Source: a virus (taxonomy: Duplodnaviria; Caudoviricetes). From it: a DNA stretch of 64,000 nucleotides. Under the pieces are notes generated by a model. That model saw only the letters and a list, made by a program, of their open reading frames with translations, was not told the origin of the DNA and did not search any database. Position 1 is the first letter of the stretch. Every line of letters starts with the position of its first letter. The stretch lies in IMG/VR virus record IMGVR_UViG_3300021368_000002, one strand, 5' to 3'. Positions 4,297-54,064 of the stretch are shown in pieces. The position numbers were made by a program, and so were the translations under genes.

Positions 4297-4761
4297 TTAT
4301 TCTTGAGTTTCGCCTTCTAGAATATTGTTACCATCTACGATTTTAATACGCTTAGGTTGTAACTCTTCTGGAACTTCACGCTTCAAGTGGATGTTTAGCA
4401 TACCTAGTTCAAGGTTTGCACAATGCACTTCTACGTGATCAGCAAGTGTAAACTCTCTACGGAAGTTTCGGCCACCGATGCCCTTGTGTAGATAGTTTAC
4501 TTCATCTCCTCCTTTAGGAGCTGTTCCTTCTACTCTCAAAATATTACCGTCTTTAGTAATTTCTAAGTTATCCATACCAAAGCCAGCAACCGCAAGAGAG
4601 ATCATATACTCGTCTTCGTTGATTTGTGCAATGTTGTATGGAGGATAACCGTTACCGTTTGGACTGTTTGCAAATGAACGTTCTAGTTCATTGAATAGTC
4701 TGTCAAAGCCAATAGTTGCTCTGTGAAAGTTAGGTAGGTCTAGAGTTGTTAGTCTTGTCAT
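4297..4761 (-). CDS. hsp20: Small heat-shock protein (Hsp20/IbpA type)
   Basis: IGFDRLF, YPPYNI, LAVAGF, YLHKGIGGRNFRREF and LGMLNIHL motifs. Confidence 0.95.
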   Translation of the reverse strand: MTRLTTLDLPNFHRATIGFDRLFNELERSFANSPNGNGYPPYNIAQINEDEYMISLAVAGFGMDNLEITKDGNILRVEGTAPKGGDEVNYLHKGIGGRNFRREFTLADHVEVHCANLELGMLNIHLKREVPEELQPKRIKIVDGNNILEGETQE

Positions 4762-4864: not shown

Positions 4865-5464
4865 CTAAAATTTTATTAATATTTCAGTGCCAACCCATAT
4901 TCTTCTTGGCTGATATCTGTCATTAGACTGTGTCTGTACAAAAATTCCATAGTCTACTTTTTTGCCTTTCCACTTTGTTCCAACATAAGTCATTATCAAG
5001 GGAATTTGTTTGGTATCTATTACGTAATGCGGCTCTACAAATATGTATGGTTGTCCTATCAATTCATACTTTTGCCATTTATATCCTATTCTTGGTCTAT
5101 AACGTAATTGATTATCTCTACGTTGCCGCTCTCTATATTCAAATCGTGACCAATAAAAAAATCCGTTATCATAATGTTTAATTTGAAAACGGACGTTATT
5201 CAGTTTTTGATCGTTAAGAGTTTGACGTCTGTACTCAAATTGATAAGGAGTATCCTTTATTTTATATCTTATCCATTCGTGATTATCTGGATGGTTATGG
5301 AATTGTTTTATTCCGAAACTAAGTTCATTGTTGACTTTAAAATCAAAGTTAAGTTCAGTCCTTTCAAATCTTTCTATATCAGCAAGAGCTGGAAAGGCCG
5401 TTAAAAGTAAAATAATAAAAGTTGTTGCAAGTTTCATAAATCCTCCGTTGTAAGTACAGAACAT
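4865..5464 (-). CDS. Outer-membrane beta-barrel-like protein (DUF2490-like)
   Basis: Signal peptide MKLATT..PALA; alternating aromatic strands; NQLRYRPRIGY motif; C-terminal Phe. Confidence 0.55.
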   Translation of the reverse strand: MFCTYNGGFMKLATTFIILLLTAFPALADIERFERTELNFDFKVNNELSFGIKQFHNHPDNHEWIRYKIKDTPYQFEYRRQTLNDQKLNNVRFQIKHYDNGFFYWSRFEYRERQRRDNQLRYRPRIGYKWQKYELIGQPYIFVEPHYVIDTKQIPLIMTYVGTKWKGKKVDYGIFVQTQSNDRYQPRRIWVGTEILIKF

Positions 5465-12159: not shown

Positions 12160-12423
12160 AAAAAAGTGTTGCATCTCTGCAACACTTTTCTAGCCGTTTG
12201 GTAACAAGGTGGACCAACCCCGTGAATCATGCCGCTAGGGCTAACTCAGGTGCAAAGTTATCGTTTGCATTTGTGTTTTGTAAACTTGCCTACCTGTCGA
12301 ATCCTATTTCGCCCCCATCATAATTACTCTACGCCGTAAATTTGTGGTTTTTACGCTACAGAGTAATTATGGTGGAGGCGCCCGGTACCGCCCCGGGGTC
12401 CAAATACGCTTTGTAACGCCTAC
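12160..12423 (-). ncRNA. ssrA: Circularly permuted (two-piece) tmRNA; tag ANDNFAPELALAA*
   Basis: Acceptor piece GGACCCCGGGGCGGUACCGGGCGCCUCCACCA ends at 12370; intervening hairpin 12317-12369; 5' end GGGGGCGAAAUAGGAUUCGAC at 12316; tag frame 12268-12227; TTGACA-N17-TATAAA promoter at 12458; terminator at 12159-12190. Confidence 0.95.
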
Positions 12424-12438
12424 GATTTATTTATAGCA

Positions 12439-12636
12439 TCACTGTGATTTATTGTCAAGATAATTTTTTATATTTGGCGCAAATAAAGCCACCAACCCAA
12501 AGATAAGTAAAAATACAAACCAACCTATTGCAATATAGGCTCCTGCTCCCCATTCGTAATCTACATACATAGGTGCAAAAATAGCACTTGCTATACCTGC
12601 TAAAATACAAATTGTCCAATATATTTTTTTACCCAT
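12439..12636 (-). CDS. Small two-TM membrane protein
   Basis: Two hydrophobic helices. Confidence 0.5.
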   Translation of the reverse strand: MGKKIYWTICILAGIASAIFAPMYVDYEWGAGAYIAIGWFVFLLIFGLVALFAPNIKNYLDNKSQ

Positions 12637-47228: not shown

Positions 47229-47444
47229 ATGCAATACGGAATGTTTACTAAAGAAGGCGATGCGAAAGTCCACAAGTTGGTCCTGCAAGCGAGGCAGTAT
47301 GCGGATTTGGATGGACCGATTAATCCTGTAGAGCAGGCGTGGAATTGGTTGCTAAACGAGCTCCATGCACTAGGCGAGGATCCGGCTTTTGAAGAGGCGA
47401 CCGACACAGCCGTTAGAGAGGCCTGTTACGACAGGCTAATTTAA
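47229..47444 (+). CDS. Early hypothetical protein
   Basis: Promoter and GAGGGC leader; GMFTKEGD and ATDTAVRE segments. Confidence 0.65.
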   Translation: MQYGMFTKEGDAKVHKLVLQARQYADLDGPINPVEQAWNWLLNELHALGEDPAFEEATDTAVREACYDRLI

Positions 47445-47521
47445 TCGCCAAAAGAGGTTGACACTATAGCGAACAGGTGCTATAGTGTATGTATAGTTAG
47501 AAACGCAGAGAGGGCACAATC

Positions 47522-47869
47522 ATGCAATTCATCGTAAGCACACAGGGACTTGAGAACTATGGCGCACACTGTGAGGACGGCAAGTTCCGTTCGGGCAATG
47601 CCTACTGGAAGTTCAAGTCAGGCACGGACTACCTTGTGTCGGGCCTAGAGCGGCCGCAAGATGCGATGGCATTCGTTGCCTCGTTCGGTATGGACAATTC
47701 AATCGGTTGGAAGGAGTTCCCATGCGAGGTTGTGAGCGAGGATGAATGGGAGTCACAGTGGAACATGGACGACGAGTTCGATGTGGAACACAGAGAGTTC
47801 AAGCTCTCTATTATGGTTAAGGTGGATCCGAGAGATCCGGCGACCTACAAACGGTTTTTGGCAAGGTAG
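47522..47869 (+). CDS. Early hypothetical protein
   Basis: Promoter and GAGGGC leader; TQ..ENYGAH..YWKFK.G.DY segment. Confidence 0.65.
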   Translation: MQFIVSTQGLENYGAHCEDGKFRSGNAYWKFKSGTDYLVSGLERPQDAMAFVASFGMDNSIGWKEFPCEVVSEDEWESQWNMDDEFDVEHREFKLSIMVKVDPRDPATYKRFLAR

Positions 47870-47923
47870 GGGTTGACAACCCCGCCACCTGGTGTTATAG
47901 TAGTTGTATAGTTAATAGAGAGG

Positions 47924-48136
47924 GTGATGACAATGTTTGTACTGATTTGGAAAGGTGAAGAGATTGATTCGTTTGAGTCCGAGGCAGAGGCCCGGAGCAT
48001 GGCGAGTGAATACAACATGGCCTACGGTGGAGGTGTCCACGTAGAGTTTGTCGAGGAAGACGACGGACAGCCAAGTTGGGAGCAGGAGTGGGAAGACTTC
48101 GGCGAAGACGCAGGATACGAGATGGAGTATCTCTAA
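47924..48136 (+). CDS. Early acidic hypothetical protein
   Basis: Promoter and GAGGG leader. Confidence 0.6.
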   Translation: MMTMFVLIWKGEEIDSFESEAEARSMASEYNMAYGGGVHVEFVEEDDGQPSWEQEWEDFGEDAGYEMEYL

Positions 48137-48336
48137 AGAGGCCCTCAGGTCGGGAGTATAAACCCAGTTAGACCGGAACACCTACATACAAGTTCCGGCG
48201 GGAGATGGGAAGGCGCCCTCGAGAAAGGCCTCCCACTTTTAACGCCCGCGGTTTTAACGCCCGTGACTTTTTGGGTCCTTTCGTGCGGTAAAAAGGTCAG
48301 AGCTCCGTGCCCTCCCGTTCCAGCTCTCCGGTCCTC
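48130..48336 (-). ncRNA. Candidate antisense-oriented structured ncRNA with three GAGGGC motifs (element A)
   Basis: Minus-strand TTGACA(48371-48366)-N17-TATATT(48348-48343); GC-rich hairpins; GAGGGC at 48314-48309, 48220-48215 and 48146-48141 with no AUG following. Confidence 0.55.
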
Positions 48337-48537
48337 AATTATAATATAGCACAAGCCTAGCACTATGTCAACCCCTTGTGCGAAAAAAGAATCCTTTGTT
48401 TTCAAGAGGTTAGAAAAAAAATAAAAATAAATTTTTCTGCTAAGTCATTGTTTTTAAACAAAACATTTTGCTTTACAAGTACGTATTGTTGTGTTATATT
48501 GTTTGTATGTTAACAAATGCATATAGGAGGGCAACAT

Positions 48538-48852
48538 ATGCAAACAACAACAAAAACATTAGACTGTGCTGTACGTGTAAATTGGGTAGCAGAGGATGCA
48601 GAATGGAAAGCAGAGTTTGAACAGTATGGCTATGACACAGATATGTGGGTTGCTGTAGGTGACTTTGATTATGAATGGAGAGATAACGTAGAAACTGTGG
48701 CTGTATTAAAAGACGAAGAATACGGTTTTATGTGTGGAAACGAAAGTGACAGGCGCTGCTACGGATTTACTGTGGATGTGTACAAAGCAGAGGAAGCAGA
48801 TGGCAACTACAGTTTTTGGATAACAGAGGAAGACTTTGAAAAAATAGGTTGA
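48538..48852 (+). CDS. Early hypothetical protein (TC/CC-free, no Pro)
   Basis: GAGGGC RBS then ATG at 48538. Confidence 0.6.
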   Translation: MQTTTKTLDCAVRVNWVAEDAEWKAEFEQYGYDTDMWVAVGDFDYEWRDNVETVAVLKDEEYGFMCGNESDRRCYGFTVDVYKAEEADGNYSFWITEEDFEKIG

Positions 48853-48913
48853 CAACTGTGTGTATGTGTGCTACTATGTACACATACACTAACAAGCAAT
48901 AGAGGGCAATGCT

Positions 48914-49165
48914 ATGCTTACAAAATACGAAAACGCAGTAACAAAAGCAATTGAATATTTTGCACTGCAAATTAACAACTGTGCGCACGACAGCGTAGTA
49001 GAAAACAACGACTACGGAATTTACGACAGCATAGACAGCATAAACTTTTTGTTTAGCAACTACAAAAATTTTGACAGCGTAACAGCACTTGCAAACTTTG
49101 CACTAGACAGCACACTGGATACTGTAGTGCGCGAAAACATATACTACGTGCTAACGGAAAAATAA
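48914..49165 (+). CDS. Early hypothetical protein (TC/CC-free, no Pro)
   Basis: Promoter and GAGGGC leader. Confidence 0.6.
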   Translation: MLTKYENAVTKAIEYFALQINNCAHDSVVENNDYGIYDSIDSINFLFSNYKNFDSVTALANFALDSTLDTVVRENIYYVLTEK

Positions 49166-52302: not shown

Positions 52303-52379
52303 GGGCCATTAGCTCAATTGGTTAGAGCACCGGACTCATAATCCGTAGGTTGACAGTTCGAGTCTGTCATGGCCCACCA
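52303..52379 (+). tRNA. tRNA-Ile2(CAU), or less likely tRNA-Met
   Basis: Cloverleaf GGGCCAT..ATGGCCC-A-CCA; anticodon loop CTCATAA; GACTCATAATC context resembles Ile2. Confidence 0.9.
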
Positions 52380-52382
52380 GAA

Positions 52383-52459
<77 letters not shown>

Positions 52460-52464
52460 ATACC

Positions 52465-52549
52465 GCTCGCGTGGTGAAATAGGTAAACACAACGGACTTA
52501 AAATCCGTCGCCGATAGGCTTGCCGGTTCGATTCCGGCCGCGAGCACCA
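52465..52549 (+). tRNA. tRNA-Leu(UAA)
   Basis: GCTCGCG/CGCGAGC acceptor stem; ACGGA-CTTAAAA-TCCGT; long variable arm; CCA. Confidence 0.95.
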
Positions 52550-52889: not shown

Positions 52890-53882
52890 ATGAATATCAT
52901 TATTAACGAAGGCACGTACAAGATACGAGGCAAAGACACTAGTGTAGCCGGTATGGTGTTTCCACTAGTAGAGGAATTTAAAATGGGTGCTGCAGGAGGT
53001 TACGTAACAGTCGACGGCAAGGCAGTCGCAGGCTTTCCAGATCGTAACATCAAGATCAAGGTGTCGGATGCGGATGCATACGAGTCAGTAGATGCTGCAC
53101 CTACGCAGAGAGAAGAGACCGACGAAGAGACCATTGAACGGTTGCGTGAACGATTTGAAATGCTCGAAGACATGACCCGAGCTGCTAAGAAAGGTGATGT
53201 GCGAGCAATGATCGTATCAGGACCTCCTGGTGTTGGTAAGTCGCACGGTGTAGAAAAAGTACTAGGCAAGCACGACTTGATTGCGCAGTTAGGCGATCGT
53301 CCTGCAAAGTACCAGGTGGTGAAAGGTGCTATGTCGCCCATCGGCCTCTACTGTAAACTGTTCAACTATGCCGACAAGGATAATGTATTGGTGTTCGACG
53401 ACTGTGACTCAATCTTCAGCGACGAACTATCGTTGAACATCCTCAAAGCAGCACTTGATTCGAAGAAGACACGTACCATCCATTGGAACACTGATTCATT
53501 CAAGCTACGTAACGAAGGCGTGCCGGATTCATTCGAGTTCAAAGGTTCAGCGATCTTTATCACGAACTTGAAGTTCGACAAGACCAAAGGCAAATTGCGT
53601 GAGCATCTAATGGCACTAGAAAGTCGTTGCCATTACATCGACCTTACGATTGATACCGAGCGAGAGAAGATGCTGCGTATCAAACAGATCGTCGGCGATG
53701 GTATGCTCCGTGAGTACAAGTTCGGTGAAGAACTACAGCAAGAGATCGTAGACTTCGTTGATATTAATAAGAAGCGACTAAGAGAACTGTCATTGCGTAC
53801 AGTACTAAAGGTCGCCGATTTGGCCAAGGCATTTCCTACCAAGTGGGAAGCCATGGCAGAGAACACTGTGATGAAGCGTTAA
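52890..53882 (+). CDS. P-loop (AAA-like) ATPase
   Basis: Walker A GPPGVGKS, Walker B LVFDDCD, FITN and LESRC motifs. Confidence 0.9.
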   Translation: MNIIINEGTYKIRGKDTSVAGMVFPLVEEFKMGAAGGYVTVDGKAVAGFPDRNIKIKVSDADAYESVDAAPTQREETDEETIERLRERFEMLEDMTRAAKKGDVRAMIVSGPPGVGKSHGVEKVLGKHDLIAQLGDRPAKYQVVKGAMSPIGLYCKLFNYADKDNVLVFDDCDSIFSDELSLNILKAALDSKKTRTIHWNTDSFKLRNEGVPDSFEFKGSAIFITNLKFDKTKGKLREHLMALESRCHYIDLTIDTEREKMLRIKQIVGDGMLREYKFGEELQQEIVDFVDINKKRLRELSLRTVLKVADLAKAFPTKWEAMAENTVMKR

Positions 53883-53994
53883 GCCCTCAACGCTCACAGT
53901 GAGTACAGCATACGAGCAACAGCCCTCACGCTCTGCTGTACGTCCGTGGCCCGGGTTGAGCTCTATGCCCTCAGAGCTCCCCGGGCTTTTTTTT
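53865..53994 (+). ncRNA. Candidate three-hairpin sRNA with GCCCUC in every loop, ending in an intrinsic terminator (element B)
   Basis: AGCGTT-aaGCCCTC-AACGCT; GTACAGCA..GAGC-aacaGCCCTCac-GCTC-TGCTGTAC; GCCCGGG..GAGCTCT-atGCCCTC-AGAGCTC..CCCGGGC-T8. Confidence 0.7.
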
Positions 53995-54064
53995 ACCAAA
54001 AGTGGTTGACATATGAGCACAGTGATCATATACTAATAATAAGAGTTAAGGAAACGAGGGTAAC

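Follow-up and report, generated by a model that had tools for sequence, protein, structure and literature searches.

An early-gene spacer of an uncultured marine phage holds two opposed conserved units, a tRNA-linked structured RNA and a predicted small RNA gene

Introduction

Why does a block of early genes that runs in one direction carry a strong early-type promoter pointing the other way? The question is raised by a window of 64,000 nt (the whole stretch of DNA analysed here), which is part of a marine phage that, like its host, is uncultured and that encodes a class Ia ribonucleotide reductase, a DnaB-like helicase and a tail fibre. Between about 40 and 55.5 kb its genes lie on the plus strand, with promoters of a single type (GGTTGACA-N17-TAnnnT) in more than 20 copies; the family, which is of the sigma70 type, was defined by GGTTGACA, a spacer of 16-18 nt and TAnnnT, often with a TG extension. 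For one spacer in this block, termed element A, a sequence-only reading had proposed that a minus-strand promoter makes one antisense RNA of about 200 nt, in which three GAGGGC motifs serve as decoys that titrate either a second structured RNA, Element B, or a protein.

We compared element A with its counterparts in 79 related viral contigs, retrieved by means of the early ATPase gene (52890-53879). A DNA search of a phage DNA collection with positions 47400-49000 gave no match. When the flanking proteins were used as probes, the downstream one had no matches and the upstream one only short acidic low-complexity matches, which were discarded. From the comparison of the relatives we conclude that element A is best described as two separate conserved units lying tail to tail, and not as a single 200-nt antisense RNA.

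Results

The motif at the centre of the earlier proposal is a genuine feature of the early region. GAGGGC occurs 30 times in the whole window, as against 11.4 ± 3.6 times in shuffles, and at 16 of the 17 plus-strand sites between 40 and 55.5 kb an ATG follows 3-9 nt on. The ribosome sites of early genes are therefore genuinely tagged by GAGGGC, as the sequence-only reading had held. The gene upstream of the spacer, a 67-aa early gene taken from the ORF list (47933..48136, plus strand), has the variant GAGGGT 7 nt before its ATG and encodes a protein with an acidic C-terminus (..SWEQEWEDF..) and no Pfam family. Its early sigma70-type promoter (47873..47901, plus strand) is an 11/12 match with TG to the family, which counts at least 20 copies. 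Homologues of the gene end beside the element in two relatives (L046 and L265). Metatranscriptome contigs, whose strand is not given, cover the region of this gene at 47818-48007 and 47972-48146; the contigs of two marsh metatranscriptome runs, also strandless, cover only 47549-48146 and 48612-48839, with nothing in 48147-48611.

In similarity searches among the relatives, the parts of the element turned up apart from one another. Two conserved units of opposed orientation are found in the 250-base spacer, namely a folded RNA at the end of the forward early gene (module 1) and a small reverse-strand RNA gene (module 2). The sequence features named earlier are all present: three minus-strand GAGGGC motifs (48314-48309, 48220-48215 and 48146-48141), none of them followed by an ATG; the arms of two hairpins, AGAGCT (48327-48322) with AGCTCT (48304-48299) and, in plus-strand coordinates, TGGGA-AGGC (48206-48214) with GCCT-CCCA (48228-48235); and a 12-nt duplicate, TTTTAACGCCCG, found on the plus strand at 48237-48248 and 48252-48263. 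These two direct copies, 15 nt apart (48237..48263, read directly), are absent from L046, L048 and L265.

What failed was the union of these features in one transcript. A hairpin followed by five U is reached already 37-47 nt from the inferred start, and for neither strand does the 207-nt stretch fold better than its shuffles (z +1.1 and -0.1). The second GAGGGC is the invariant loop of a plus-strand RNA, as described below, and the third, which on the plus strand is a GCCCTC just past the stop codon (48141..48146), is not conserved, being absent here in L046, L064 and L100. The data also indicate no protein partner. One minus-strand RNA of about 200 nt, with three decoys soaking up Element B or a protein, thus seems to us very improbable, even though all three motifs exist and read-through past a weak terminator would carry them all.

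The minus strand also has an open frame of 86 codons (48405-48145), which we considered as a gene and rejected. Every in-frame ATG, GTG or TTG precedes the inferred RNA start and none follows it, leaving the transcript with no start codon, and the frame has no Pfam family. Its pieces are kept separately among the relatives (promoter with box on one side, module 1 on the other) and never together as a single frame, the helices vary in length by steps that are not multiples of three, and the sequences past the box are unrelated between lineages. The chance that this frame is the gene is negligible.

One DNA contig of run X9 matches the window up to 48146 and resumes at 48431, with the whole cassette missing or replaced, and contigs of run X5 diverge at 48146 and 48431 too, one of them continuing with a module-1-like GCGGTTAGGC. 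Because the contigs break at these two positions, the whole element is taken to be a replaceable cassette among co-occurring strains. In L046 (7590-7640), L100 (1790-1840) and L064 (1120-1140), module 1 and the minus promoter have a short conserved block (..CATCGGGAG(T/C)GTA..) between them; it forms a GGAGT/ACTCC hairpin in L046 and L100 and is absent from the window. Rfam 15 yielded only noise-level matches on the spacer stretch, below gathering scores. Elsewhere in the window, Rfam matched 12187-12462 (minus strand, inside the minus-strand gene block) to permuted tmRNA with 77.6 bits and to alpha-type tmRNA with 69.3 bits, above gathering scores, and ARAGORN gave no tmRNA.

Module 1 (48152..48240, plus strand) is a three-helix RNA. 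A pattern scan recovered further copies, for a total of 15 distinct sequences, which in window coordinates pair as P1 (48152-48154 with 48163-48165), P2 (48173-48179 with 48192-48198) and P3 (48206-48214 with 48228-48235) and are followed in the window by a T-run (48237-48240). The joining strands AGUAnAAAC, GUUAG and GGCGGGA are invariant, as is the P3 loop, GCCCUCnnAGAAAG, listed for the window as GCCCUCGAGAAAG (48215-48227). The helices themselves covary: 94% of cells are paired, double-sided changes are seen in 12 of 15 pairs, none of 500 shuffles equals this, and the signal collapses when the helix partners are slid. P3 is the TGGGA-AGGC/GCCT-CCCA hairpin named above, and the second "GAGGGC" is therefore the complement of an invariant plus-strand loop.

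The strand of module 1 is settled by its tRNA context and its T-runs. Ten of the 15 distinct copies stand immediately 3' of a tRNA gene of the same strand, and in three of these ten another tRNA comes after the motif. Runs of T4-T9 stand after P3 in the window, L046, L057, L060, L062, L100, L145 and L153, while P3 is free of a T-run in L127, L138 and L142, where the motif is succeeded by a tRNA gene of its own strand. Additionally, a covariance model of module 1 found 8 copies in ATPase loci, all on the plus strand, which is that of the early genes. Counts of G-U versus A-C pairs (4 versus 2) are too few to choose a strand. Fold energy was uninformative for this choice, since even in the controls of known strand, module 1 and Element B, it favours the G-rich strand.

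Together these results lead us to regard module 1 as a plus-strand RNA, predicted to be co-transcribed with tRNAs or, in the window, with the small early gene. P3 has the form of an intrinsic terminator, a hairpin with a T-run at the place where the transcript should end. An exact 25-mer of the P3 loop was found nowhere in viral contigs, and at E<=10 neither the window copy nor L127 matched an Rfam family. Module 1 thus appears to be a new structured RNA motif, linked to tRNAs, with strong covariation and absent from Rfam.

The second unit begins with the promoter that raised our question (48343..48371, minus strand). It has TTGACA at 48371-48366, a 17-nt spacer, TATATT at 48348-48343 and TG at 48351-48350, which makes it an 11/12 match with an extended -10. 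No other minus-strand match in 44-54 kb scores 11/12, in agreement with the earlier claim that this is the sole minus-strand early-type promoter noticed in the plus-strand block, and no other strong minus promoter is nested in the 10 kb that precede the ATPase gene. Judged by its sequence, it belongs to the phage's sigma70-type early family and is of the same class as the plus-strand copies. Upstream of the -35, an A/T-rich stretch (48376..48410, minus strand; ..TTGAAAACAAAGGA..CTTTTTTC..) is common to the window, L046 and L265, where it is kept despite their differing transcribed parts; it is possibly a UP element or a factor site. The RNA predicted from this promoter (48290..48336, minus strand) would be about 47 nt long, starting near G 48336 and ending at a U-run (48294-48290), where a scan also detected a terminator-like site. 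Within it lies a 23-nt box, AACGGGAGGGCACGGAGCUCUGA (48319-48297), with the core GGGAGGGCAC.

The box is identical in seven lineages (the window, L048, L058, L095/L096, L185, L218 and L265), and in all seven a promoter is kept at the same distance from it. In L048, L058 and L095/L096 the promoter recurs with the sequence behind it; L185, L218 and L265 were added by a metagenome scan for the box, in which 120 matches, mostly chance in GC-rich DNA, included three genuine ones. The promoter spacers, the 5' part of the RNA and the sequence past the box differ among the lineages; the box is without a single change. In every lineage the RNA start is GAGGA or GAGGC, and the box lies 25-60 nt downstream. 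Among 185,579 bacterial and archaeal genomes the box had two matches, both in unrelated coding sequence and about the number due to chance, and it is therefore not host-derived.

Behind the box, 4 of the 7 lineages have a U-run, and the other three lack a T-run. The unit of L265 faces a homologue of the window's upstream gene, with a separate terminator for each. In L058 the whole unit, promoter included, is inverted and lies between plus-strand genes, co-oriented with its neighbours and with its own T-run. It follows from this inversion that the conserved product is the GAGGGC-sense RNA, and we conclude that what is conserved is a promoter leading to that RNA, with an anatomy resembling that of a small-RNA gene. 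The earlier idea of an independently promoted antisense RNA can thus be kept in part: a predicted non-coding RNA bearing the tag without a start codon recurs in the 7 lineages (inverted in L058), and the 200-nt length and the three decoys are given up.

In the window the predicted RNA has a 6-bp stem followed by U5, and the stem appears as AGAGCU, GUAGCU or GGUGCU across lineages. The AGAGCU stem is absent in L095 and L218, no compensatory changes occur, and in an alternative fold the tag is itself paired (AGGGC with GCUCU). Since the stem is not maintained, the selected feature is the box sequence and not the hairpin, which argues against the display of GAGGGC in an AGAGCT/AGCTCT hairpin loop. 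Of the two hairpins of the sequence-only reading, then, covariation in relatives upholds the one that belongs to module 1, as plus-strand RNA, and not the AGAGCT stem.

A functionless origin for module 2 has to be weighed at this point, in which an early promoter-leader cassette was inverted by modular shuffling and lost its gene. The promoter belongs to the class of the plus-strand early promoters, the minus units of L046, L100 and L102 begin with early-like leaders (..GTAAGAACAATAAGGG..GAGGGC..) and have no ORF, and the X9 contig that jumps from 48146 to 48431 comes from a co-occurring strain in which the cassette is missing or replaced. However, a 23-nt box unchanged in 7 lineages whose promoter spacers have diverged indicates purifying selection, and we consider such a relic improbable. 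Shuffling of this kind is familiar from the PeSL promoter/stem-loop cassettes of T4-type phages and their modular variable regions (PMC2839356, PMC4122927). The present unit is like PeSL in its promoter class, in the cassette-like indel among co-occurring strains and in its shuffled early array, and unlike it in that module 2 is inverted against the array and has a conserved non-coding box instead of a downstream gene.

Nested minus promoters were found in only 13 of the 33 relatives with enough upstream sequence, and the unit is therefore accessory. Of the nested minus promoters in the relatives' plus-strand block, 11 of 15 have GAGGG within 170 nt. Most of the others beside that of the window lead into GC-rich non-coding sequence with GAGGG, several times in predicted hairpin loops. 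The unit of the window appears to be a new RNA gene, predicted at about 47 nt, with a 23-nt box unchanged across diverged phages.

The repeats behind the promoter suggest another role, that of an origin-linked early promoter whose G-rich RNA primes or activates replication. The two 12-nt repeats of the window lie 70-100 nt downstream of the start, and in L095/L096 (5946-6085) five palindromic repeats of about 15 nt (RGTTTARYRTTAAAC), some 30 nt apart, stand directly behind the box; at least one such palindromic repeat is present in L218 near 1180. Perfect DnaA boxes lie just downstream of the minus promoters in L100 and L082, and a very A/T-rich stretch adjoins the promoter. Against this, the repeats are not the same from one lineage to another, and L048, L058 and L265 lack them. 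In the window, perfect DnaA boxes are missing, one-mismatch sites are at chance level (20 versus 20.4) and the GC-skew profile shows no turn at 48 kb; moreover, a terminator right behind the box is ill-suited to a primer RNA. We rate a link to an origin as rather unlikely. The closest parallel is T4 oriE, with an early-mode promoter and iterons (PMC3016281). The window is similar in having an early-type promoter beside short direct repeats in a variable early region, and differs in that its repeats are few (2 in the window, 5 in L095) and unconserved among lineages.

The minus promoter might instead fire against the end of the plus-strand unit, so that the minus RNA or polymerase traffic pairs with or blocks the plus-strand transcripts with GCCCUC hairpins, limiting read-through or triggering cleavage of a duplex. 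Consistent with such cis-antisense or convergent control, the window, L046, L064/L066 and L100 each have a convergent minus promoter 90-260 nt downstream of module 1, and others stand just past GCCCUC domains that trail plus-strand tRNA arrays in L045, L082/L104, L086, L090 and L102, loci without a clear minus-strand terminator. Overlap is expected in L064 and in the tRNA-trailer loci. In the window, by contrast, the minus RNA would overlap plus-strand features only by reading through 48290, and in the window, L048 and L265 the U-run after the box precedes any overlap with module 1 or a gene. Furthermore, the unit of L058 is co-oriented with its neighbours, with nothing opposed and no overlap, and interference alone leaves the invariant box unexplained. 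Control in cis is therefore, in our estimate, a minority possibility.

The sequence of the box points to a partner elsewhere. Element B (53880..53997, plus strand), the proposed partner, has three hairpins with GCCCUC loops, the last of which is a terminator. Plus-strand hairpins with GCCCUC loops follow the ATPase gene among the 59 relatives listed, and the last hairpin is often a terminator. Their commonest loop, GUGCCCUC (GUGCCCUCCC in several relatives), is the exact complement of the box core, and Element B of the window has two stretches of complementarity to the box, one of 10 nt (UCAGAGCUCC) and one of 7 nt (UGCCCUC). The duplex of the small RNA with Element B has a calculated energy of -49.2 kcal/mol, compared with -39.3 ± 4.3 in shuffles, of which 7 in 300 were as good. 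By the same measure, pairing of the small RNA with module 1 was no better than with shuffles. The proposed titration of Element B by a sponge is in keeping with the complementarity of the box to its loops (8-10 nt); a CsrA-like protein partner is not suggested by any of these features. On the plus strand, module 2 resembles an Element B hairpin, for example GAGCTCC..GTGCCCTCCC..AGCTC in Element B of L072, and may therefore be viewed as an Element-B-type hairpin with a promoter that transcribes its complement.

Discussion

The reading of module 2 that we favour, and hold tentatively as one that may well be wrong, is a trans-acting decoy or anti-hairpin small RNA, that is, a sponge or anti-sRNA encoded by the phage. 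From an early promoter of the host type, the minus strand would be transcribed into a short non-coding RNA of about 47 nt, whose invariant box copies the GAGGGC ribosome-site tag of the early genes without a start codon. On the other strand, module 1 follows the upstream early gene, has its invariant GCCCUC loop in the last hairpin and would end the transcript there. The GCCCUC-loop RNAs (Element B and module 1) could bind the tag of early mRNAs by base pairing; the small RNA would offer the same tag in trans, pair with the GCCCUC loops over 8-10 nt, and so relieve or time their action on early translation. Another partner, such as a protein, or a role at the DNA level is possible, because an invariant 23-mer exceeds what loop pairing needs.

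If this is true, a lytic phage carries a sponge against its own regulatory RNAs. To our knowledge, such a layer of control has so far been described mainly for bacterial and prophage small RNAs. A more ambitious extension, which we think unlikely as it stands, is that these marine jumbo phages run a three-layer RNA circuit, in which the GAGGGC tag of early mRNAs would be opposed by anti-tag GCCCUC hairpins made from gene 3' ends and tRNA precursors, and these would in turn be neutralised by the promoter-driven decoy, module 2. Such a circuit would set the timing of early translation without a protein regulator. Antisense and sponge RNAs with promoters of their own are already familiar from phages; what is new here is the proposed arrangement of tag, anti-tag and decoy within one lytic phage group, along with the invariant box and the module 1 motif. 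Whatever the function, two concrete objects hold, the tRNA-linked motif and the predicted RNA gene with its box.

Among known systems, AgvB and AsxR of EHEC prophages are phage-encoded anti-sRNAs or RNA sponges. Like them, the proposed decoy would be a short RNA of a phage, made from a promoter of its own, that imitates the target site of a regulatory RNA and would titrate that RNA. It would be unlike them in that the proposed regulator (the GCCCUC-loop RNAs) and the targets (early mRNAs) are both the phage's own, with no known link to Hfq. The terms anti-sRNA and RNA sponge are used here as in PMC4474525 and PMC7873438. With CsrB and RsmZ, module 2 shares a ribosome-site-like motif on a non-coding RNA. 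Those two are sponges of proteins, and CsrB has many GGA loops and the partner CsrA; unlike CsrB, module 2 has a single conserved tag and no indicated partner protein.

Convergent antisense RNAs of phages are also known, such as lambda OOP, which acts against cII, and CfrI of cyanophage S-PM2. Like these, module 2 is a predicted small RNA with a promoter of its own, is directed towards the 3' end of an early gene and would end in a hairpin and U-run. In contrast to them, the module 2 RNA, if ended at 48290, overlaps no plus-strand gene or RNA, and in L058 it is co-oriented. The plus-strand RNAs have parallels in the Cuckoo and CcsR RNAs of Alphaproteobacteria, which show C-rich, anti-ribosome-site-like hairpin loops downstream of a gene (PMC4615179, PMC8034643). 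Module 1 and Element B likewise have C-rich, anti-ribosome-site-like loops downstream of a gene; their loop is GCCCUC and not CCUCCUCCC, and their setting is a phage, linked to tRNAs. Membership in the Cuckoo/CcsR group was considered and rejected on this difference in the loop and on the Rfam searches of the window copy and L127.

Several minor observations concern the early regions of the relatives. Clusters of DnaA boxes (TTATCCACA, 3-6 perfect boxes in one orientation) occur in the early regions of L070 (2664-2760), L079 (184-234), L082 (3499-3615) and L100 (769-857 and 1931-1943). The palindromic repeats of L095/L096 have the look of iterons or operators.

In the relatives, nested minus promoters often stand opposite GCCCUC hairpin domains that trail a Met-Arg-Leu tRNA array. 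Such a trailing domain with a convergent promoter is found in L045 (1925-2004), L082 (7786-7875), L086 (308-397), L090 (4404-4485) and L102 (5200-5326). Unlike in these relatives, the Met-Arg-Leu array of the window (52303-52549) is followed directly by a plus-strand promoter. A 7-8-mer, CCGGCTG(C/T)T, occurs three times in or behind the minus promoters of L086 (about 330-435), L090 (about 4440-4523) and L102 (about 5230-5364), with one copy inside the promoter spacer and two in the transcribed part. CAGCCGG is also present after Element B in L090 and L091, and the recurrences of CCGGCTG(C/T)T may mark a protein site.
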